DNA of 64,000 nucleotides from Curvularia clavata (taxonomy: Eukaryota): NCBI GenBank assembly GCA_023920165.1, contig CP089281.1, positions 1,240,001-1,304,000 of the forward strand. The letters run 5' to 3'. Positions 7,584-33,616 of this stretch are shown piece by piece; position 1 is the first letter of the stretch, and every line of letters begins with the position of its first letter. The notes beneath the pieces were generated by a model. The model did no database searches. It was not told the origin of the DNA and saw only the letters and a program-made list of their open reading frames with translations. The translations under genes and the position numbers were made by a program.

Positions 7584-9133
7584 TCATCGATTCTTCAGCA
7601 CGCGAAACTTTGGTCGCATCTTTCTACCCAGACTCGTCTGATGAATCCACGCCTCATACTCCATGTGCCTCGTGGTGCCTATCAGCTTGTAAATATCAGT
7701 ATAATGCCATCGTCCTTCAGTCCAATTCTCTTTATCCAACTCCTCAACAAGCAGGTATTGGAGCGCATCCAGCTCTTCGCTGTGCTCTTTATCCCACTCT
7801 GTGCTCGCTCCGATGCTCAAGTAGCGCAGGCGGCCGAGATACCGCTCATCGAGTAGCGTGTACAAATCTGTCGGGGTAAAGTTGCGTGCGGGGTCGCCCT
7901 GGCGGCCGCTGGAGACAATGGTTAAGCTGGTGAGTGGCTTGGCTTCTTGCCAGCGCTCGGGTGAGAAATCCAGAGGCATGTAGCCGAAGCGCGAGTCGAT
8001 GTAGTCGAGGGCGATGGTGAGGGAAAGGAGGTTTGGGAGCCAGTCCAGTACGCCGTTTAGACGGCCATGTTTCACAGAGGGGAGGTCGCGTAGTTCAACG
8101 TTTGTGAGATTGGGGGAGAGTGTGGAAAGCAGGGGCTTTATGCCTTGTTGGTCGAGCGAGGGGCAGTGGTGGATACTCAATGAGGAAAAGGTTGGTGGAA
8201 AGTTGCCAGGTTGTTGGAGCATGTCCCAGAGGAATTGGCCCGAGACAGAACCGGAAAGAGTAAGGTGCTGCAGTTTTGGTGGCCAGCGCAGGATTGCGCC
8301 CGGGGAGGCGTTTTTATCGTATCGAGAGGAGCAGCGGGGGAGATAGAGTTCGCGAAGCTGAGGGAGTTGGCGGATGGTTTGGTTGAGTGACTGGAAGTCT
8401 ATGCATTCTGAGACTCTGCCATAGCTACAGTGTTAGTCGGGAATTTAGTCTTTGTCTGTGACGGACATCATGGAGATTGTAGTAGGAGAATGCGGTAGGA
8501 CTCACAGGCTCAGGTCCAGGACGCGCAATCGAGAGCATTTGCTCAGACTTGCCCAGCAATTTATGGCAAAGCTGGCTTGGGGTGCTACAAAAACTTCCAA
8601 AGAGGGCTTGGTGCGTCCAAGTAATCTGGCTGTTGTGGACTTTGCGCCTTGGTGAACAATGTGGGATAAATCAAGCTCTTTGACTAAACCTGATAATGGT
8701 GATGGCTTCCTTCTTGTCAGTTCTTGTCCTTTTTGATTGGCAGAAGACCAGAAGATCTTGAAGGACAGTGTACCTTAATGCGTGCGTTGACAGACGGGCT
8801 TATCGTGCGAACGAATAAATAATATGCGCCTCCCTCTAAGTATGGTGCTTCATAGAGCGGTCCTATCGCTACCTGATAGGATGAACATTATGATAAGCGA
8901 AATGCTCGAGAATAATTCAGATGCAGTTGTGACATACATCGTACCATTGCCTAGAATGTCAGCTTACGTTGAAAACACATCCTCTAAGCCATGCCGTACC
9001 TATTCACGGCGGAGAAGCGGGCCAATGTTATTTGCCGCTCGAGTCTGCCCCACGCCTCAAAATGACCCAGGATCTCGAGTAGCAGTTCATCTGGCAAGTA
9101 GTTTCCATAGTCCCTGGCCCCAACTACACTCAT
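7584..9133 (-). CDS. F-box / leucine-rich-repeat protein
   Basis: Spliced by hand: MSVVGARDYGNYLPDELLLEILGHF (F-box), a short QWYD exon, VAIGPLYEAP, LVKELDLSHIVHQ, CSRLRVLDLSL, and LRR-like LxxLxL repeats in the last exon. Four introns between about 8420 and 9000. Confidence 0.8.
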
Positions 9134-10090
9134 AGCTTCTTGAGCTGGCTGTTATATGCGGTTGAAACTATCGTGTAATCGATGTTGCTGCTTAGAGGGC
9201 GCAGGCGCAAAGGTGTGGTTGAAATGACGCACTAGTGAGTTCGCGCTTATCTCCTTGCTAAACCCGAGGTGGAGCAAACGCGATCGTGCGCCACCACGCT
9301 AGGCTTAAGCACGCGCCGTTGCACAGTGAATCACGCCTCGAAGCTGGCCCGATGTGCACTGAACCGGACAATCTGCATTTCAAAAGCAATATAGCGAAGA
9401 AAACTTTTGGAGCACGCACACACATTAAGGATATGCACACCACCGAGGGATGGGACTTTTATGCTCGGACTATCGATTTGACCGGCTCGGTTGGATAACA
9501 TTTATGCATATCGCCAGATACATATGTTCAGGGTGGTTGCAGCGGACTTCGAAGCGGAAAACTAGCTATATACCATCTACGTAGGGCATTGAAAGACCGT
9601 GTAATGGGGTAGCCCTTCACGCTGACCTGCTACTATGTACGGACTATATCATGTCATGCCCCTTGAGCGCATGACATGATCCCTGTCTTCAACACCATTA
9701 CCGCAATGGTTGCATCGGTCCTTTTTCGCTGTCGTTCGTCTGACCCTGACATTTTCGCGGCTTTGCTTTTCAGCAAGCATCAGCAAGGCCTGAACGGCTC
9801 CGCAGCTTACGTAGGGCCGTCGCGAATCGATGGTGCATGATACACAGCCCACAGGTTGTTTCTGCTCCCTCATTGGATTCCCGCCCATAATAGCGTACTT
9901 ATCGAACGGCAGCTAGTGTGGGGTTCCCGGTATTTGATTGTTCTGTCCTACCCTTGCAGATCCCATATAAGGTTCACCGGCTGTGACATTCCATGATCCC
10001 TTATTTTACCATATATTTCCGGGTCGGACGTCTTCTGTAGATAAGTAGAGGCATCCTCCCCTTTTCTTCGAATCCGTGGTCCTAGCCATC

Positions 10091-11363
10091 ATGAAGACGC
10101 CCCTCGCCACGTTAGCGATATTGGGATCAGCGGCTGCTGAACGCCTCCTCCTGGCATCTTACGGTGTCGACACAACCCCAGGAACTGTTGCCACCCTTGA
10201 ACTCCAACATAGCGCGAGTTACGGTCACGGCCGCAAGCTAGAAGTTATCCATGAGAGTCACGAATGCGGTGCCCTCCCTACATGGCTCGACACATCTCTC
10301 GGTCCGAATACGGTAGTCTGTCTGGATGAAGCATCCAAAAATGCCAACATAACGACATTCAATCTCGAGGCCGATGGTAGCCTGAAGAAAACATCCAGCG
10401 TGGGTACGCTGGGTGCCGCTGTGGCTTCTGCGACGTATAACAGCAAATCGGCTATAGCGCTTGCTCATGTACGCACCTCCACGGCTTCGCTCGTGCTCAC
10501 ATACTAATATCGTGTCAATAGTATGAGCCCCCTGCAATCACAACGTATACAGTCCACCACAACGGATTACTTCAATCTCTGCAGAACTTCACTTTTGGAA
10601 GCCCTGAGCAAATCCACCAAGCAGTCGTTGATCCCACAGGCCAATACATCATCTTCCCCAGCCTGGGCGCCGATCGCGTCCATGTCTATTGCATCGATCC
10701 ATCCACCGGTCTACTAACCGAACACGAGTCCCTAAAATCCAAAACAGGATACGGTCCTCGCCATGCCGTCTTCTGGACCAGCAAAGAATCAGCCTCTACT
10801 TACCTCTTCCTAGTCCACGAGCTTAGCAATAAGATCGTGAGCTACAAAGTCAACTACCTCGAGCACCTTGGCGGGTTGAAATTCACAGAAGTAGACGAAG
10901 TAAGCACGTATGGCAACCACACTGTTCCAGACAAGACGTTTGCCTCGGAAATCGTCATCTCGCCATGCAATTCGTTTGTACTTGCTGCAAACCGCAATGG
11001 CACGGTTTTCACGGTTGAGAACCCGGACCCGAAGAATAGTACGAGGGTGCCGAGCGACTCGATTGCGACGTTTAAGCCTACGGCCGAGGGCAAGCTGAAG
11101 TTTGTCCAGCTGGCAAAGTCAGGTGGATATTATCCGAGGCACTTCAATTTGAACAAGGATGGGTCTATGATTGCGATTGCGAATCAACGTAGTTATAACG
11201 TGGCTATATATTCACGTGACGTGAAGACTGGACTTATCAAGGATGATGTGCCAGTAGCTGGGGCTGCAGGTCTCGGGCCGGGGGATCTGATGTAAGTTTG
11301 GTCACTTTCGACATATACGAACTCATCGCTAAAACAAAATCTAGGTATATCCAATGGGTATAG
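10091..11363 (+). CDS. Secreted 7-bladed beta-propeller lactonase (6-phosphogluconolactonase / carboxymuconate cyclase family)
   Basis: Signal peptide MKTPLATLAILGSAAA; HQAVVDPTGQY, GYGPRHAVF, VHELSN, SGGYYPRHFNLNKDG. Introns about 10469-10521 and 11292-11344. Confidence 0.88.
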
Positions 11364-11447: not shown

Positions 11448-12731
11448 TCAAGGCATCTGTGTTCCTTGTTCCTGCTCAATAGCCCATGATACGGCATCCC
11501 ATACGTCACCCACAATCTTACGTGGCTCCGGTGACGGCTTTGTGCCTTTGACGTAAACACCCGTCTCGACTAATATACTGGCCCAGTCGGTGCCATACGG
11601 ACTCTTGTAGTTGTTGCCGCCAGCAATGTCACTGGCGGGGTTGTCACCGACCATGTACACCCGTTTGAGATGGTCAAGAGTGCCACCGCCACCATACTGT
11701 TTCATCAGCTGGTTGCGATGTGCTATGAGCCGCTTTTCGGCAAACTCATAGGTAGGTTGGTGTGGCTTCCCCATGACAACCTTTTGCAACTTGACGCCAC
11801 GTGCCTCGCCGCCAGTGATTGCCGCCCAAATGCCTTCAAAAGCTTCACGGAAACCTCCTTGGCCTAGGCGCGGAAGGTGGTATTTCGCTGCCCAGAGCAA
11901 GTCTGGGTTGGAGTAGTAGACCGTAGGTTGTCCGTCTTGTTGATAACCGCGATTCTCTAAAGCATCGTTGCCGTTCTTCTTGGATAGGGTTCCCATGATA
12001 CCCTTTTCGGATAGCAATACGTCTTTCAAGATTTGCGCATCCAGCCCCCAGTCACGCGGGTCGTTGTAGACAAACACGGCATCAATGCGGAGCGATGTTG
12101 ATGGTGAAGATGCGTCGATAGGGGCGGGTAGAGGACGGGTAAAGGTCTTGTAGTATGGGAGCAATTGCTGTGAAAACGGCCAAACTTCCGGATGAGCGAC
12201 GAGAATGTCGCCTGGAGTGACCACAGTCTTGAAGCTGTGCATATTTGTTAGAATATATAGCCATATGAAAGTGCGCCTCAACATACCCATATGCCTCGGC
12301 GACTTTCCTACACTTGTCCGCCTCCCCACCAACCACCATGACCGTCTTATCCTTGAGATGGTCCATGTCGGCAAACGGAGTGTGACTCTGAACAAACATG
12401 GACATGTCAAGAGGAACATTGAGCCTGCTGCTCAGGTCGGCGACGCGCTCCGATTCGTGTTTCCCGCCGCCATTGGTGAGCAGAATAAACGGAATGCGCT
12501 GCGACTGGAGATAGGAAAGGGTCTGATGGGCGCGAGGCAAGGGGTCAGCACTCCTAAGGAGCACTCCGTCGATACTGACAGCCGTCAGTGGCCGTGTTGT
12601 GAGTCGATGGCGGAGCTGCCTTACTCGAAAGCGAACGCAAAGTCGGATGCGCGTGCGTTGGGGGCAGCAGCCGTCTGGAGAAAACGACGGAGCGGATAAT
12701 GGCACCCGCTCCGAGCTAATGGCCTCGCCAT
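11448..12731 (-). CDS. HAD-superfamily IIA hydrolase, CECR5/YKR070W-like, probably mitochondrial
   Basis: Arg-rich presequence, FAFDIDGVL (motif I, across intron 12575-12624), LLTNGGG, DPRDWG, GKP, MVGDNPASDIAG. Second intron 12235-12286. Confidence 0.9.
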
Positions 12732-12895
12732 ACGCATCACGGTTGCACCAACCATGTTCTTGATGTCGTGTGAGGTTGAAGGTCTGGGGCACGCTTGTGG
12801 AGCACGGTATGGCATCCCGTAGACCCCCACTTTTTTCGGAGCGGTTCATGCATCCATCCTTGGCCAACTTCGTCCAGTCACTGTGACGACCACTG

Positions 12896-13370
12896 TTCTC
12901 AAGAACAATAGGAGCAGATCCAAAAGCCACCGTATCACGCCTCAACCATGTCAGTCTACTTCTAGGCCCCGTTCTTACCTCCTTTGGCGGTATTTGCTGC
13001 AAAGTGCCTTGATTCCATGTTTTCAATACTATTAGTCCACCGCCCCTTGCATGGCCTCGACGATCAAATCGTCCGACGAGTCTTTGGAACTCCCAGTGGC
13101 ACGGGGCGTATGACTGGCTCTTACGAACGGGGGCTTCAACAATGACAAGAGATATGACCTTGTCACGTGCTTCTCAAGAACAATAGTAAGAGTCGGAGCT
13201 AACTAATCGCCACTTCCTAACTACACACATTGCAAGCCTCAAAAGAAGATCTAGACTTGGCTTCGTGATGAACAATCATAGGTCACAAAGGAAACACTCT
13301 TCTTTCTTGCACTGTTGCATCTGATCATACTCCTGATAGAAGCCCTATAAATTCTTCTCTTTCTTCCCCA
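12896..13370 (+). promoter_or_regulatory. Promoter of the CaaX-repeat peptide gene: HMG-box-type sites, TATA box and CT box
   Basis: AACAAT at 12904, 13138, 13179 and 13271, ACAAAG at 13285, all on the + strand. Perfect 16-bp direct repeat TTCTCAAGAACAATAG at 12896-12911 and 13171-13186. TATAAA at 13346-13351 followed by a pyrimidine tract. Confidence 0.65.
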
Positions 13371-13468
13371 GGTCCTAATTTCTCCACTGCAACATCAGTC
13401 TACAACCCTACAATCATCCAAGCTTTCTACTAAAACCTCTTTGAAACTAATATATTTCTTCAAAAAAA

Positions 13469-13648
13469 ATGAAAATGGCGGGTATAAAACCCGTCCCTCG
13501 CCGGGGAAGTTCTCCAGGACCAGGCTGTACCGTCTCTCGCGGCTCTTCTCCAGGCCCAGGCTGCACAGTCTCTCGTGGTAGCTCACCAGGCCCAGGCTGC
13601 GTCGTTTCTCGGGGTAGCTCCCCGGGACCTGGCTGCGTAGTCAGCTAA
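13469..13648 (+). CDS. Putative lipopeptide (a-factor-like / h-type) pheromone precursor, 59 aa, four CaaX-ended repeats
   Basis: Hand translation: MKMAGIKPVPR-RGSSPGPGCTVS-RGSSPGPGCTVS-RGSSPGPGCVVS-RGSSPGPGCVVS-stop. ATG in A-rich context (CAAAAAAAATG), terminal CVVS CaaX box, repeat differences almost all synonymous. One residue shorter than the smallest ORFs in the supplied track. Confidence 0.85.
   Translation: MKMAGIKPVPRRGSSPGPGCTVSRGSSPGPGCTVSRGSSPGPGCVVSRGSSPGPGCVVS
13502..13645 (+). repeat. 36-bp coding tandem repeat, 4 units
   Basis: Units start at 13502, 13538, 13574 and 13610; each encodes RGSSPGPGC[T/V]VS. Confidence 0.95.
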
Positions 13649-14342
13649 ACACTTGTTCTTCCTTCTTCGTCTTCTTCTTTCTTCACGAAATCACTGGGCG
13701 GTCGCGACATTCTTTTCGACGATACTTCTTTGTATATAATGCGAGAGTAACATGGAGGAAGAGAGACAAAAGTAGCTTCTCTCTTCGCTTCATGTCTTAC
13801 CTTGCTGTTTTGCTACGCTACGATACAAACTACGGAGCCCGTTCCCCCGAAAGGGCAGGGTATGTTGACATGAGATATGAGGGTGGATTATGGACGGCGG
13901 GACTTTTGCACAAGGACATGGGATTTAGGAATGGGCGCAGTTGATCGAGGGTGGCAAGGCTATTTTTACTTTTGATGTCTATGTATTATTTATGTCGTCA
14001 CGTCGGAAATACCAATGAAGAAATGGCCATCTCCTTTTATGCGTTCTCGGACAAGCTTGATCCAGTCTTCGAGTGTCTTCATTACTGTGACATCTGGACC
14101 CATGAATTGTTTCATCTGAATCATGCATTACGGTTTTCACGCTGATTGGCCCATGTCAACGTGCATGCACTTCGGTTATTCTCAGCACAAGGCAAGTTCA
14201 ACGTCCGTTTTAGTCTTAGCCCTTCAAGGACCCCTCATCATGGAATGTCCATCGTGTTTTCACGAAACTTCGGTAGGACGTCCTCACCAGTGGCCCTTCT
14301 AGTCCTTGCTCGGGAATTCATGGATAGCTTCCTCGCTTAAAC

Positions 14343-16196
14343 ATGCCATTGAGTCAAAAACCGCGCCGACGTGACTTCGAATATAGCCTTCTACAACCCC
14401 ATAGTTTCAGGTTACTAGAGATCATTCCGGGACGAAGTCTATACGCCGATATTCACTGTAGGCTGCGGCACTATCAATTAGACTCGGCACCGCCATACGA
14501 AGCTCTATCATATACGTGGGGCGATAGGGAGAGTACATGCCGGATATCATTGAATGGTTTAGCCTTCCACATCCGTCCAAACCTTCGTGACGCGTTGCGT
14601 CGCCTGCGGCAACTTGGAAGCACAAGAATCTGGGTTGATGCAATATGCATTGATCAAAACAAAGCCGACGAGAAAGCCGTTCAAGTGCCTCTAATGGGAA
14701 ATATATATACTCGAGCAAAACGTGTTGTTGCTTGGCTTGGTGAAGAGACAAATGAAATTGAGATGGCTCTTGATTTCATGCCACTCTTGACTCAGTTTGC
14801 TATACTCGACAACGAGCGTATCTGGTTAAACTGCCTTAGAAAGAACGAGTTTCTTCTGCGACTGAAGTTCCTTTGTCATCTGTTCGGCCTTCCTTGGTGG
14901 AAAAGGATGTGGATAATCCAAGAAGTGGCACTGGCTCCGGAGGTCCTTGTTTTGTGCGGTTCTCATCGCATTCCTTGGTCGAAATTCCATTCCTTTATCA
15001 CAGTCTGGATGGACATTGGAAATTTGCAGTATCACGACTTGAACTTGCTTCAAGCAAGTACCTGTCGTCTACTTGGCATGCTCGTCTCCGGCTTTGCAGA
15101 GGCATTAACGAGACTGCGTCAGTTACATCAGACTACTTCCTCCGCGCCTGAGTCACTCAAACTATCGAATTTGCTCTGGTCATTCAAATATCGACATGCA
15201 ACTGATCCTAGAGACAAGATTTATGGCCTTTTAGGTCTTCTTGGTGACCACGGAATCCAGGTCGACTGCAGTAAGTCGGCTGAGGATATATACTTGTCAT
15301 TCTTTTCCTCATGCCTGATGGAAGACAAAGGCCTAGACTGGTTTCGTTGGATGACTGGAGAGCCCTATGAGTCTAATGAACTATGCCTTCCATCTTGGGT
15401 TCCCGATTTTGGTCCGAGATCTTTAATCCCAATCTCCTCTTTTTTGCCTTACCAAGATCTAGGAGAGTCGCAGCGAGCATTCTTGACAGCTGGGAGAGAT
15501 CGGTCAAGGTCATCGTCTACTATTAGATTTGGAGATGACTCTCGTATACTCATTCTCCGAGGCTATTTGTTTGACGTGGTCAGCCAATGCGAAGAATATA
15601 CTTACCCCGTTGTAGAAGATAATATTCTTAATGGTAGCGCGGACCGACGAGTCTTCTCACGCTGGAAGAAAATGGCAATGGATACAAAATTTGAAATATA
15701 TCATTCGCGTGTCGCTAAAGAGGATGCCTTTTGGAGAACAATTTTGACCGACCGGCAGATCGAAGGGCTTCATTTTGAGGAAAATGCTGGATGGAACCCA
15801 GCACAGCGACTACAAGCAGGAATACAGCATGTTCCACCTAAAAACAAGGAGGAGGAGCAGCAGTTGTTGCAAGCCATGGAGAATCGGCCACTTTGCCTGA
15901 ACGGGCGAAGTTTTTGTATAACTAGGAAGGGACATTTCTGCTTACTGCCACCGACCGCTTCCAAGGGGGACCTAATCTGCGTATTGCTGGGCGGCGAGGT
16001 GCCCTACGTACTGAGGCGTGTCCATGATCAAAGCGAAGAGTTTTATACGATGGTGGGTGAATGGTGAGTGGCCAGATCCCTGCGTACCGTTTTGATTACT
16101 GACTGGGCTGTTAGTTATGTTCATGGAATAATGGATGGTGAGGTTATTGCCGACATTGCGCAAGGGAAAGACGAGGCTGAGTTCAGGCTGCGATGA
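14343..16196 (+). CDS. HET-domain heterokaryon incompatibility protein, HET-6-like architecture
   Basis: YEALSYTWG, WVDAICIDQ, QVPLMGNIY, WWKRMWIIQE, ATDPRDKIYGLLGL, LPSWVPDF, GDLICVLLGG. Intron 16064-16114 restores the C-terminal VGECYVHGIMDGE. Confidence 0.93.
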
Positions 16197-29396: not shown

Positions 29397-32300
29397 ATGG
29401 ATCGTGGCCGTGGTGGCGGCCGGCGAGGCGCTCGTGGTGGTGCTCGTGGTGGCCGTCATGGAAATGGTATTAGCGATCGAGCGTCTTCTCACAGTTCCGG
29501 GAGCTCTCATAGCCGGCCCAGGGCCAATCGAGCAAACGGCCATACCCAAGTCACTACTCAATCCAACAGGAGTGACCTTCTCTCGGACGACTCGGACAGT
29601 CAGCGCAGTGTGCACAGATCGATTTTATCAGGCCCGGCATCGCATTGGGCATATTGCCAGGAGAGCAAATTCAAACTCTTGGGTATACCTAAGAACTGCT
29701 GGACATCAAATGTCTACCAGGTAATGTCGGCTTATGGTAATGTCTTCAGGATTGAGATGGAGCCACTTGGTCGCGAATCTAACGCATATGTGGTTTTCCG
29801 GTAAGTATTGAATCAAAAAGTCAAAGAAAAGAAGCCTAACATTACAATCCCAGGCCTCCTCCCCACAAGCCTATTCCAAAGGAAAACTTGCGATTTCGCT
29901 CTGGTTTCGTACGGTGCGAAGCGTTTTCGCCGCTCTCGGCCATTATCAAAAGTCCTGTCAACCCCACCAAGCAATACTACGATCTCAACATACTCTACGC
30001 GAAGCAAATCCAGTTTGGTGTCAGAATCTCAGAACGGAGCATGATTGAGATGCGCAACATTGAGACGTCCGCAGACATCCAGGTGATATTGAACTTGAAG
30101 CGCAGAGAGATCGACGTGCAATTTCCTTTGCAAATTGACACAGACACTCGTAATTTTCGCTTCAGTTTACCCATCTCTCTAATATCACATATCTACAGGA
30201 CTACAGACCAGAGAACTGGTCTACCTTCCCTTGTTATCCCATTCGATTCACCACCGCGCTTCTACACACAGAAGAAAGAAGGTGAACGCTTGGAAGATGG
30301 CAGCAAGCACACCAGCTTCTCAAGGAAAGACAAAATCTGGAATGATTGGGAGACTTGGCACCGAGCGACTGATATAGTCAATGGGGCAGTGTGGCAGGCT
30401 GTTCGAGAAAGTCCCTTGATGAATCATAAGGGCACAGCTATCATTGACATTGGTAAATACATTGGGTAACTGTAGCGGACCAATGCTGACTTAACAGGCC
30501 GTTGGACCAACTATCGACTGGTATTCGACCATTCGGTGTTGACTGGGTCACAATTCAAAGACTTCAGCGATGCTCTGGCCGATCATGGGGCCGTGATTGA
30601 GACTCTTGAGTATACTACTAAGCCAAAGATCTCATCGCCATTATGGAGCCTGCTGCAGGAAGAAATTTCCGGTACGCATCCACATCTCGATGTCACTTTC
30701 ATGGCTTTCAAAGACCTCTTCGACAACCAGGCCCACTTGAGTTTCCCAGTGCGATACCAGCTTGAAGTCTGCCTTTCGAACGGATACATTAAAGAGTATA
30801 CCATTACAAAAGAGTTTCTGAAAAAGCTAGAATCACTCGACATAGATACGGCTGTGTACATACTCGAAAAGGTCGCTGACAAACAGCACACCTATTACGA
30901 TCCAATGGATATATTCGACATTCCAACAAGAATGTCGAAAAGAAAGATACCCAGCTACTGCGCACTCCAACGATCAGTCACAATCACTCCGACTATGATG
31001 CATGTAGCAACCCCCGTGATGGAAACGTCTAACCGCATCATCCGTAAGTACGAGGCTGATGCTGATCGATTCATCCGAGTGAAATTCATGGATGAGAAAA
31101 CTGAAGGTCAGCTTCGCACATTGAACGGCAGGACTGAGGCTTTGTTTGATAGAGTGCAACGCGCGATGAAGAATGGTATCGTCGTTGCTGGACGATACTA
31201 CGAATTCCTAGCCTTTGGGAACTCACAGTTTCGTGAGCATGGCGCTTACTTCTATGCGCCCACAACCTCAAAGTCAGCAGAGGATATTCGGATATCTCTC
31301 GGGCAGTTCAATCACATCAAGACTGTCTCCAAGTATGCAGCGCGTCTTGGCCAATGCTTTTCGACAACACGCGCCATGGGTGTCACTGTGAAGCTTATCA
31401 AGATTCCCGACGTTGAGCATAACGGCTACGTCTTCACGGACGGTGTTGGAAAGCTCTCTCTCTTCTTGGCTCAAATGGCAGCTCAGGAACTCGGCCTAGC
31501 TTTCAACGACCCGCCATCGCTCTTTCAGTTCCGTCTTGGTGGTAGCAAAGGAGTGCTTGCGCTTGATCCAAACTTGAGTGGAAGCGAAGTTCATATTCGA
31601 CCGAGCCAATACAAATTTCAAGCCCCTCACACAGGTCTTGAAATCATCCGTTCCTCGTCCTTTGCAACGCCATTCTTGAACCGACAAATAATTCTCGTTC
31701 TTTCACACCTTGGCGTCCACGACATGGTCTTCCTGAACAAGCAGAGGGCGATGATGATTGATTACGCCCGAGCCATGGAGGAGGACGATATCGCCTTGCA
31801 GAAGCTTAGAACGAATATCGATATTAACCAGATCAGCCTGGTAATGGCTGGGATGGTTCTAGACGGCTTCATGCGATATCGAGAGCCGTTTATCATGTCT
31901 TTACTCGCACTTTGGAGAGCTTGCACGATCAAAAACTTGAAGGAGAAGGCGAGAATCGCGATTGACAATGGGGCCTTCTTGCTTGGCTGCGTCGACGAGA
32001 CTTCGACGCTCAAAGGGCACATGAACGATCCTCAATCCAGACGTGATGCAACTAGAGAAGAAAAACTTGCGACCCTCCCAGAGATCTTTTTACAGGTCAG
32101 CGATATCAACAGAAGAGGCCACTACAACATTGTACAAGGCGTGTGCATACTGGCACGTAACCCGTCGTTGCATCCTGGGGATATCCGTGTGGTTCGCGCG
32201 GTGAATGTGCCAGCACTTCACCACCTAAAGAACGTCGTAGTCTTCCCCCAGACCGGAGAGCGTGATCTCGCTAACATGTGCTCTGGTGGCGATCTTGACG

Positions 32301-33616
32301 GCGATGACTACATGGTCCTATGGGACAAGGACCTGATACCCGATATCATTAATGCTCCCCCGATGGACTACACGCCAGAAAAGCCACTCGAAACTGAAAA
32401 GCCGATCACAGCTAAAGAAATAAGCCAGTTCTTCGTCAACTACATGAAGAACGACGCTCTAGGTCCGATTGCTCACTCTCACCTTGCACAAGCTGACTTC
32501 AGAGACAATGGCGTTGGTGATCCAGTCTGTTTGGAGCTAGCAGAGCTCCACTCGAGGGCAGTCGATTTTCCGAAGAGCGGGATACCTGCTGAGATGAGGC
32601 GGGAGCTTAGGCCAAAACGATGGCCACACTTCATGGAGAAGAAGTACTTGGCTCCACACCAGATTTATCACTCCAAAAACATTCTCGGTCGTCTGTACGA
32701 CGAAGTGCAGCTGGTAGATTTCAGGCCCCAGTGGGATAATCCTTTCGACGAGCGCATATTAAATGCGTTCGACCTCGAGCAAGATGTACTGGACAAGGCA
32801 GCAAATCTCAAGCTCTCGTACGACGAAGCGCTCCGGCGATTGATGGCTAAGCACGGTATCCAGACGGAGTTTGAGGCCTGGTCGGTTTTCGTACTAGTGC
32901 ACAATCGCGAGAGCGGTGACTACAAATTCGCAGAGGAGTTTGGCAAAACGGTTGGAGCATTGAAGCACCAGTACCGCGACGAGTGTCGTAAGGCTGCGGG
33001 CATGAACGACAATGCTGACTGGGCACGCCTGGGGCCATTTGTCGCTGCCATGTACACAGTCACTGCGCATGAGATGGAGAGCGCCTTAGACGAATGCAGC
33101 AAAGTGAAGATTGTAGGAGGCCGTGAGGAACCTTGTCGCATCAAGGACCCTAAGCATATGCCGCTGATCTCATTTCCATGGCTTTTTCCGAGTGAGCTCG
33201 GCAAGATCGTTACCGGGGATAGTACAAGTCACCGACCGAATGGGGTTCAGAGCCAGCATCGCCAGAGGAAGTACGTCCGACCAGCTCAAGCAAAAACCAA
33301 CATTGGAGCCGTGGAGACTGAAACAGGCACTACACTATATGGCGAATTGCTGGATTTGGACTTCAGTCTTCCGGCACTTCAAATGAGTGACCAGACCTCA
33401 GCAACTGAGGTAACAAGAGAGCGACCCGGTACCGCTGATGACGGACTTAGTGCACAGAGTCGAATTGGAGAAGCTTCTAGGCTACTATCTTTACTGCTGC
33501 CTAGGTTCTCACCACCCTCTGCCGGTTCTGGCAGTGGGAGCAATGGATCAGCAGAAGACAGTGTCAATGGAAGTCTGGAGCAGCTAGGTAATGGTCATGG
33601 AGACAATAGGTTTTAA
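29397..33616 (+). CDS. Cellular RNA-dependent RNA polymerase, SAD-1/Rdp1-like (DLDGD type)
   Basis: FLAFGNSQFRE, ARLGQCFSTT, FTDGVG, QFRLGGSKG, RNPSLHPGD, catalytic CSGGDLDGDDY, AVDFPKSG. Introns 29801-29853 and 30453-30497. Confidence 0.95.

Follow-up and report, generated by a model that had tools for sequence, protein, structure and literature searches.

The locus and its tandem-repeat gene

The 64-kb stretch of DNA analysed here (hereafter the window, meaning the whole of that stretch) carries on its plus strand, at 13469..13648, a short gene whose product consists of a leader followed by four near-identical tandem units, each of which ends in a CaaX-type box. It is a real, transcribed, single-exon Pleosporales gene and a member of a conserved family of small polyproteins, and we discuss it below as a candidate precursor of a lipopeptide mating pheromone. 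The features of the gene itself, in window positions, are the following:

13346..13351, plus strand: TATAAA, about 120 nt upstream of the ATG (consensus match only)
13469..13648, plus strand: complete coding sequence of the precursor of 59 amino acids (aa), stop included (sequence and translation)
13469..13501, plus strand: leader MKMAGIKPVPR, short, basic and without a hydrophobic core (translation and hydropathy)
13475..13477, plus strand: second in-frame ATG (the M of MAGI) in the context AAAATGG (homologous to the start of the relatives)
13502..13537, plus strand: unit 1, RGSSPGPG-CTVS (translation)
13538..13573, plus strand: unit 2, RGSSPGPG-CTVS (translation)
13574..13609, plus strand: unit 3, RGSSPGPG-CVVS (translation)
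13610..13648, plus strand: unit 4, RGSSPGPG-CVVS, with the true C-terminal CaaX box, then TAA (translation)

An initial annotation of this DNA had proposed at 13469..13648 an open reading frame (ORF) of the form MKMAGIKPVPR(RGSSPGPGC[T/V]VS)x4-stop, and the sequence and its translation bear this out: after the leader, the precursor reads RGSSPGPGCTVS twice and RGSSPGPGCVVS twice, and then stops. The start ATG lies at 13469 and the stop TAA at 13646-13648, while an in-frame TAA at 13448-13450 shuts the frame 18 nt upstream of that ATG. The relatives introduced below read ..IKMAGI.., where the K derives from their 5' leader; the start context AAATG is common to two of them that were found on metagenome contigs (L003 and L018), and L003 also has a TATAAG about 105 nt upstream of its own ATG, again as a consensus match only. 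The period of the array is 36 bp according to Tandem Repeats Finder (TRF), and the units are joined by single Arg residues, with no dibasic Kex2 sites. The lack of a signal peptide, also claimed in the initial annotation, holds by a simple hydropathy count, in which the highest 9-residue Kyte-Doolittle mean is 0.59 and falls at the C-terminus, leaving no signal-peptide-like core. A degenerate codon pattern for PGPGC[TV]V has four matches in the 64-kb window, all of them within this ORF, against 0.05 expected. The 59-aa peptide has no usable match in Pfam, NCBIfam or the ESM Atlas, and a word-indexed protein search with it returned 631 candidates, none at E <= 10, from a collection in which the peptide itself is absent. 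This absence agrees with the initial annotation, according to which the ORF track lacks the gene.

A conserved family of relatives and synteny in one of them

The relatives were collected by four routes. Among 1.84 billion representatives, phmmer found 21 matches at E <= 1e-3; on inspection of all 21, seven share the layout of the window gene, one (P0140) is a relative devoid of Cys, and the other 13 are unrelated repeat proteins. A profile search gave 12 matches and six new family members, and cluster members contributed seven further sequences. Finally, a DNA-pattern scan of metagenome contigs gave 20 loci, two of which belong to the family (L003 and L018); the other 18 are chance matches. 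L003 and L018 also gave weak Pfam matches (Hexapep, KOW and others), which fall below cut-off, are driven by the repeats and were set aside.

Each of the 23 family sequences has a short leader, in which KMAGI is frequent, followed by between two and five units that are 12-16 residues long. Their 87 boxes all have the form C-[TVI]-[VI]-[QSMH], a uniformity that follows by construction from the regular expression used to tabulate them, and the commonest is CTVQ (56/87). Every internal box is directly followed by K or R, and in 10 of the 23 sequences a box stands immediately before the stop. Two members are named, from Melanomma pulvis-pyrius and Karstenula rhodostoma, both of the Pleosporales. 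The peptide that precedes the Cys differs between species (GSSPGPG, GVVKGPG, GPTPGSN, GAQPGMQ, GVTPVPP and others), and the box and the KMAGI-type leader persist. A conserved box next to a diverging peptide is the pattern that would be expected if the box served conserved processing enzymes and the peptide a co-evolving receptor.

The window falls in the same order. Its mitochondrial EF-G ORF is 95% identical to those of Stemphylium and Pyrenophora, 87% to that of Boeremia and 84% to that of Venturia, and these best named matches place the window in the Pleosporales, class Dothideomycetes. The divergent neighbour of the peptide gene serves as the anchor for synteny:

11451..13173, minus strand: CECR5-type HAD hydrolase gene (TIGR01456) (library match, splice joints and L003 ortholog)
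12235-12286 and 12575-12624, minus strand: introns of the HAD gene (GT..AG ends; splice joints in RNA-derived run X18, below)

The initial annotation had suggested looking for a small CaaX-ending ORF next to this gene in related genomes. Synteny was assessed in one relative, L003, the contig of L018 being too short, and such an ORF is present there. It has five units: it opens with MGVVKGPGCTVQ, continues with four units beginning RD or RG, and ends in CTIQ followed directly by the stop. It lies head-to-head with the HAD ortholog (68-84% identity) at a spacing of about 960 nt, as compared with about 880 nt in the window. Beyond the HAD gene, L003 also has an Hsp70-like gene (84%) and an LRR-like gene. 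The lactonase gene (PF10282) that lies between the Hsp70-like and HAD genes in the window (7584-11295) is absent from L003 (8346-9587), and the LRR-like gene has the opposite relative orientation in the two. When positions 12800-14400 were compared by blastn with L003 and L018, there was no alignment at E <= 0.01, so that no promoter motif could be called conserved; a three-way upstream alignment of the window, L003 and L018 has little in common beyond the AAATG start context. We also considered whether the segment might be a fragment of a transposon, and rejected this: it is single-copy in the window, and one 23-kb contig from a DNA run of another strain passes through it uninterrupted.

On the other side, directly downstream of the peptide gene, a single-exon HET-domain (heterokaryon incompatibility) gene of 579 codons occupies 14328-16067 on the plus strand; it has no counterpart in the 2.1 kb of L003 on that side.

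Two further observations arose from the searches. The two best phmmer matches, P0121 and P0122 (E = 6e-17 and 2e-16), have six to eight 12-aa units such as YSPDPGCLLSKA, in which a CaaX-like CLLS is followed by K or Q, and their ORFs extend well beyond the repeats. Two of the rejected DNA-pattern loci, L006 (9739-10341) and L019, matched through nine 12-aa units GLGSG[DE]GCTVG[NKS] that are the antisense of a Pro-rich linker, (PSPEPSPLPTVQ)n, within a 469-aa ORF of bacterial type. These two loci illustrate how CaaX-like patterns can arise as the mirror image of a linker.

Transcription and strain variation

A transcript over the ORF was another of the checks proposed initially, and one is available from run X18:

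13224..13870, unstranded: one 675-nt contig of run X18, with no joint (RNA-derived run)

Run X18 is derived from RNA, since its contigs carry the HAD gene with both introns removed; the ORF is transcribed and unspliced, since the contig spans 13224..13870 without a joint. The X18 cover is absent at 12770-13223 and at 13871-14351. These gaps, and the contig depths in X18 (65 for the contig of the ORF, 21.6 for that of the HAD gene and about 5 for that of the HET gene), are unsuited to ranking or bounding the transcripts. Low-depth contigs of two further runs, X19 (13846-14001) and X20 (13673-13833), are at least 99% identical to the window immediately downstream of the ORF, and a contig of X19 bridges the end of the X18 contig at 13870. 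Both come under the label of other organisms, and X19 also holds the spliced HAD gene; RNA of the fungus of the window thus seems to be present in samples that are labelled otherwise.

Two other strains could be compared. The number of repeats is unchanged in both. The strain of DNA run X7 has 13 differences in 3 kb, none of them in the ORF. In the strain of X18, the A-run immediately ahead of the ATG is longer by one A (13461), besides the two differences within the ORF that are taken up below.

Selection on the coding frame

It had been argued initially that divergence at third codon positions, together with switches between Ser codon families, indicates selection on the frame, and the counts bear this out. 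Among the four 36-nt units, 17 of the 36 columns are variable: 3 at first, 3 at second and 11 at third codon positions (hypergeometric P = 1.9e-4). Of the six first- and second-position changes, four are switches of Ser codon family (AGT/TCT/AGC; TCT/AGC) in which Ser is kept, and the remaining two produce the sole residue change, in which Thr gives way to Val at the opening 'a' of the CaaX box. Because this Thr/Val site sits in the aaX tripeptide that is removed by CaaX processing, all four units would yield an identical mature peptide. The relatives have their own versions of the same pattern: the units of L018 have 12 variable nucleotide columns, the peptides of its units 1-4 are identical with residue changes confined to the last aaX, and its Ser codons are TCT, AGT, TCC and AGC; in L003, five of the seven variable columns are third codon positions. 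Selection on the coding frame at 13469..13648 is confirmed.

These data bear on two explanations in which the ORF would have no function of its own. The first takes the array for a 36-bp minisatellite without coding function, lying in intergenic or untranslated DNA, with the ORF as a by-product. Its detection by TRF as a tandem repeat, the low complexity of the peptide, the failure to match Pfam, NCBIfam or the ESM Atlas and the fact that both X18 differences change residues are what such a minisatellite might present; a minisatellite would, however, hardly concentrate its variation at third positions and retain Ser across codon-family switches, nor would it preserve the frame, the start context, the layout of the units and the position of the stop in relatives too diverged for their DNA to align, and the repeat number is constant in two other strains. 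We regard this explanation as very improbable.

Less probable still is the second, according to which the true gene is on the minus strand, either as antisense QPGPGELPRETT units or as a long 5' leader of the HAD gene, the plus-strand ORF being its mirror image. One antisense frame shares its third positions with the sense frame and is therefore open across the array as well; the X18 contig is unstranded, and the chance match L006 was precisely the antisense of a Pro-rich linker. This antisense frame, however, stays open over 13450 to 13644 only, being closed on either side, and contains no Met, and the RNA contig runs unspliced across it. The Ser switches become Leu/Glu/Asp changes in the antisense of both the window and L018, and in L018 the antisense frame is more variable than the sense frame. 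The placement of start and stop is conserved for the sense frame only.

A candidate multi-copy farnesyl-peptide pheromone precursor

We favour, with somewhat better than even confidence, the reading that the gene encodes an a-factor-class multi-copy farnesyl-peptide pheromone precursor, comparable to those of Huntiella and Fusarium, to the h-type genes and to rhodotorucine A. CaaX boxes with X = S, Q or M direct farnesylation. As far as the sequence alone can indicate, the 59-aa precursor, having no signal peptide, would stay cytosolic, and each of its units ends in C-[TV]-V-S, a putative signal of the farnesyltransferase CaaX/CpaX type. The last box is already C-terminal, whereas each of the three internal boxes would first have to be exposed by cleavage at the single Arg immediately behind it, a cut that would also free the lipopeptide. 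By analogy with the a-factor of S. cerevisiae, the boxes would then be farnesylated, the aaX tripeptide removed, the Cys carboxyl-methylated and the products exported by a Ste6-type ABC transporter, and the predicted output is four identical molecules of (R)GSSPGPG-Cys(farnesyl)-OMe, which would be sensed by the Ste3-type receptor of the partner.

For the internal units, and for the nine of the 23 family sequences with a tail after the last box, the cut would have to precede prenylation because the box is not C-terminal; we know of no enzyme that makes such a cut at a basic residue ahead of prenylation. A bolder proposal is that the family is the long-missing a-factor-class pheromone of the Dothideomycetes and is matured by an undescribed 'cut, then prenylate' route, in which a cytosolic endoprotease would act at Lys/Arg. 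This is a possibility that we put forward tentatively and with clear doubt; if it were true, one small polyprotein would give rise to three to five identical lipopeptides.

Several properties described for a-factor precursors are found in the window gene. Its length of 59 aa is below the 100 aa used as an upper limit (PMC10569646), its last CaaX box directly precedes the stop (CVVS, then TAA), and all four of its units show the repeat pattern set out in PMC13037118. The initial annotation had proposed it as the unannotated a-type pheromone gene of this fungus, and the three checks named there as able to refute this (transcript, syntenic ORF and high-copy transposon) left the proposal standing. 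The repeat layout, the selection on the frame and the occurrence in a lineage with no reported a-factor are in agreement with it; the pheromone role is one that we infer, beyond what is observed directly (the ORF, frame selection, the family, synteny in one relative and transcription of the region).

A number of observations weigh against the favoured reading. The leader is neither hydrophobic (PMC13037118) nor Ser/Thr-rich (PMC10569646), as it is in described a-factors, and the precursor contains no GY motif. The X18 strain has two differences within the ORF, both nonsynonymous: at 13486, A>G gives Ile6Met in the leader, and at 13508, A>G gives Ser14Gly in unit 1; there is no synonymous one. 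The X18 contig is not only unstranded: its start lies some 120 nt upstream of the TATAAA, and its end at 13870 abuts an Illumina adaptor. Among the 87 window ORFs of at least 85 codons, a Pfam scan found no STE3, MAT, cyanase or phospholipase D (PLD) gene, and the locus thus differs from that described for Sordariomycete a-type genes (PMC3068285). Within the family, nine of the 23 sequences end in a box followed by R and one or two further residues (RY, RC, RS, RN, RML), so that their last unit is not a C-terminal CaaX box, and the annotated models P0126 and P0159 continue for more than 100 aa beyond the last unit. Lastly, P0140 has five 12-aa units RGNTPGTNNVV[HQ], with Asn in place of every Cys, and its units line up one by one with those of the Melanomma member P0126 (50% identity, E = 3e-20); P0140 may have decayed, or it may hint that prenylation can be dispensed with.

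The last of these points suggest an alternative in which the precursor gives rise to non-prenylated peptides cut at single K/R, with C-T-V-Q/S lying within the mature peptide or acting as a recognition site. The nine family sequences that lack a C-terminal CaaX box and carry a short tail, the retention of the unit structure in P0140 despite Asn for Cys, and the K or R after every internal box would all be accommodated. Secreted repeat precursors, in contrast, have dibasic Kex2 sites, whereas the spacers here are single basic residues and there is no signal peptide. Moreover, all of the 87 tabulated boxes except one CVVH fit farnesyltransferase specificity, the variation within the genes is concentrated in aaX, as expected if that tripeptide is discarded, and 10 of 23 sequences stop exactly after a box, which is far above chance placement of a stop. 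We consider this alternative unlikely.

A similarly small chance is assigned to the possibility that the biogenesis is the one proposed above but the farnesylated peptides do not serve mating: they might signal in development, density sensing or hyphal fusion, or a lineage that mates rarely or never might have retained the gene. Run X18 probably comes from vegetative conditions. The candidate a-factor of Leotiomycetes is expressed regardless of mating type, and Wilson et al. doubted that it is a classical pheromone (PMC10569646); co-option of a pheromone for quorum sensing in F. oxysporum is cited in PMC10182648. Nothing in the window, on the other hand, favours another role.

Comparison with known precursors

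The closest likeness of the proposed pheromone precursor is to the repetitive a-factors of Huntiella and other Ceratocystidaceae and of the Fusarium fujikuroi complex, which are likewise short, lack a signal peptide and are made of near-identical units, each with its own CaaX/CpaX box and one of these at the extreme C-terminus (PMC10182648, PMC13037118). A Huntiella unit comprises 12 aa, from an initial Arg to a terminal CpaX, with more variation in the box than in the peptide before it (PMC10182648); the window units share the length, the initial Arg and a box more variable than the peptide. Huntiella units such as RGVTQAPP (PMC10182648) resemble units of the present family, for example RGVTPVPP in P0134. 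In Huntiella, expression of the repetitive a-factor is restricted to MAT1-2, and the gene is flanked by those for tubulin alpha and a nucleolar protein (PMC10182648), as opposed to the HAD and HET genes here. The window gene also differs from the Huntiella and Fusarium genes in class (Dothideomycetes against Sordariomycetes), in that one gene copy is seen, and in that some of its relatives are tailed. The likeness is one of layout; no Sordariomycete sequence surfaced in the phmmer or profile searches.

The initial annotation had likened the layout to that of the h-type genes, and this holds in part. Three copies of (LI)GC(TS)VM define the h-type, a variant within the Hypocreales that often has Kex2 sites; one such gene, HPP1 of Trichoderma reesei, is required for male fertility (PMC3068285). 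Like HPP1, the product of the window gene is a tiny protein with repeated G-C-[TS]-V motifs, one of which forms the extreme C-terminal CaaX box (PMC3068285), and the claim stands as regards the four copies and the C-terminal position of the last. It does not stand as regards the motif consensus and membership of the Hypocreales: the four copies read PGC[TV]VS, with Pro for Leu/Ile and Ser for Met, the repeat takes in the complete unit and not the motif alone, its spacers are single Arg residues, and both the order (Pleosporales) and the locus differ (PMC3068285). Fusarium ppg2, which had been given as an example of repeated motifs, is imprecise in that role; according to Schmoll et al. (PMC3068285), ppg2 of G. 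zeae has one motif copy and is not h-type, the repeats being found in other Fusarium.

Precursors with several farnesyl peptides are also known from the RHA genes of Rhodosporidium toruloides and other red yeasts, in which the tandem peptides of rhodotorucine A have CaaX-like spacers between them, and for which the maturation enzyme that exposes the internal boxes is not known (PMC3068285, describing Akada et al. 1989). In related strains of red yeast, only synonymous changes are found between the tandem units (PMC3236058). The window gene has the same arrangement of tandem peptides and CaaX-like spacers, whereas the RHA genes are from a basidiomycete and lie in a pheromone/receptor mating-type locus, and no STE3 or MAT gene is found among the window ORFs of at least 85 codons. 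The spacer of the red yeasts, C-TVS-K, would match the C-TVS-R of the window gene.

With the Leotiomycete candidate (the family of Botrytis cinerea BCIN_13g03330), the window gene has in common that it is unannotated, falls in the range of 45-64 aa, has a CTVM-like end and comes from a class other than Sordariomycetes (PMC10569646). The Leotiomycete proteins carry one box only, their N-terminus is rich in Ser and Thr, a GY motif lies close to the C-terminus, and the usual endings are CTVM, CVVM or CIVM (PMC10569646); the window gene, in contrast, has four boxes and neither the Ser/Thr-rich N-terminus nor the GY motif. MFA1 and MFA2 of S. cerevisiae are also small cytosolic precursors with a C-terminal CaaX box, and their pathway, in which the precursor is farnesylated, loses aaX, is methylated, is trimmed at the N-terminus and is exported by Ste6 (PMC2134810, PMC2148179), is the model for the steps proposed above; in yeast, however, there is one peptide per precursor and there are no internal boxes. 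Unlike precursors of the Kex2-processed alpha-factor type, which have a signal peptide and dibasic Kex2/Ste13 sites, the window gene has neither. We describe it as a gene that would work like a repeat-type a-factor precursor, and as neither an h-type gene nor a member of the Leotiomycete family.

Significance

In Pezizomycotina, the lipopeptide (a-factor) class, one of two classes of ascomycete mating pheromone, has so far been known only from Sordariomycetes and, putatively, from Leotiomycetes (PMC10569646). The Leotiomycete candidate was stated to be the first a-factor outside Sordariomycetes in this subphylum, efforts in other classes having failed according to that study (Wilson et al. 2023, PMC10569646). 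Our literature search, with most subscription journals outside its coverage, found no report of such a gene for Dothideomycetes. The present analysis adds a census of the family, one syntenic ortholog and the observation of tails after the last box. Dothideomycetes include many crop pathogens and many species without a known sexual stage; a conserved, expressed candidate whose predicted product has eight or nine residues makes pheromone/receptor pairing and mating-type specificity testable, and raises the question of whether seemingly asexual species keep the pheromone/receptor pair intact. The family also bears on a biochemical question that is common to rhodotorucine A and the h-type precursors, namely how internal CaaX boxes are exposed.

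Another gene of the window

Elsewhere in the window, a long ORF on the plus strand (30476-33616) contains the complete domain of an RNA-dependent RNA polymerase (PF05183, E = 4.5e-201), a polymerase of the kind used in fungal RNA silencing.

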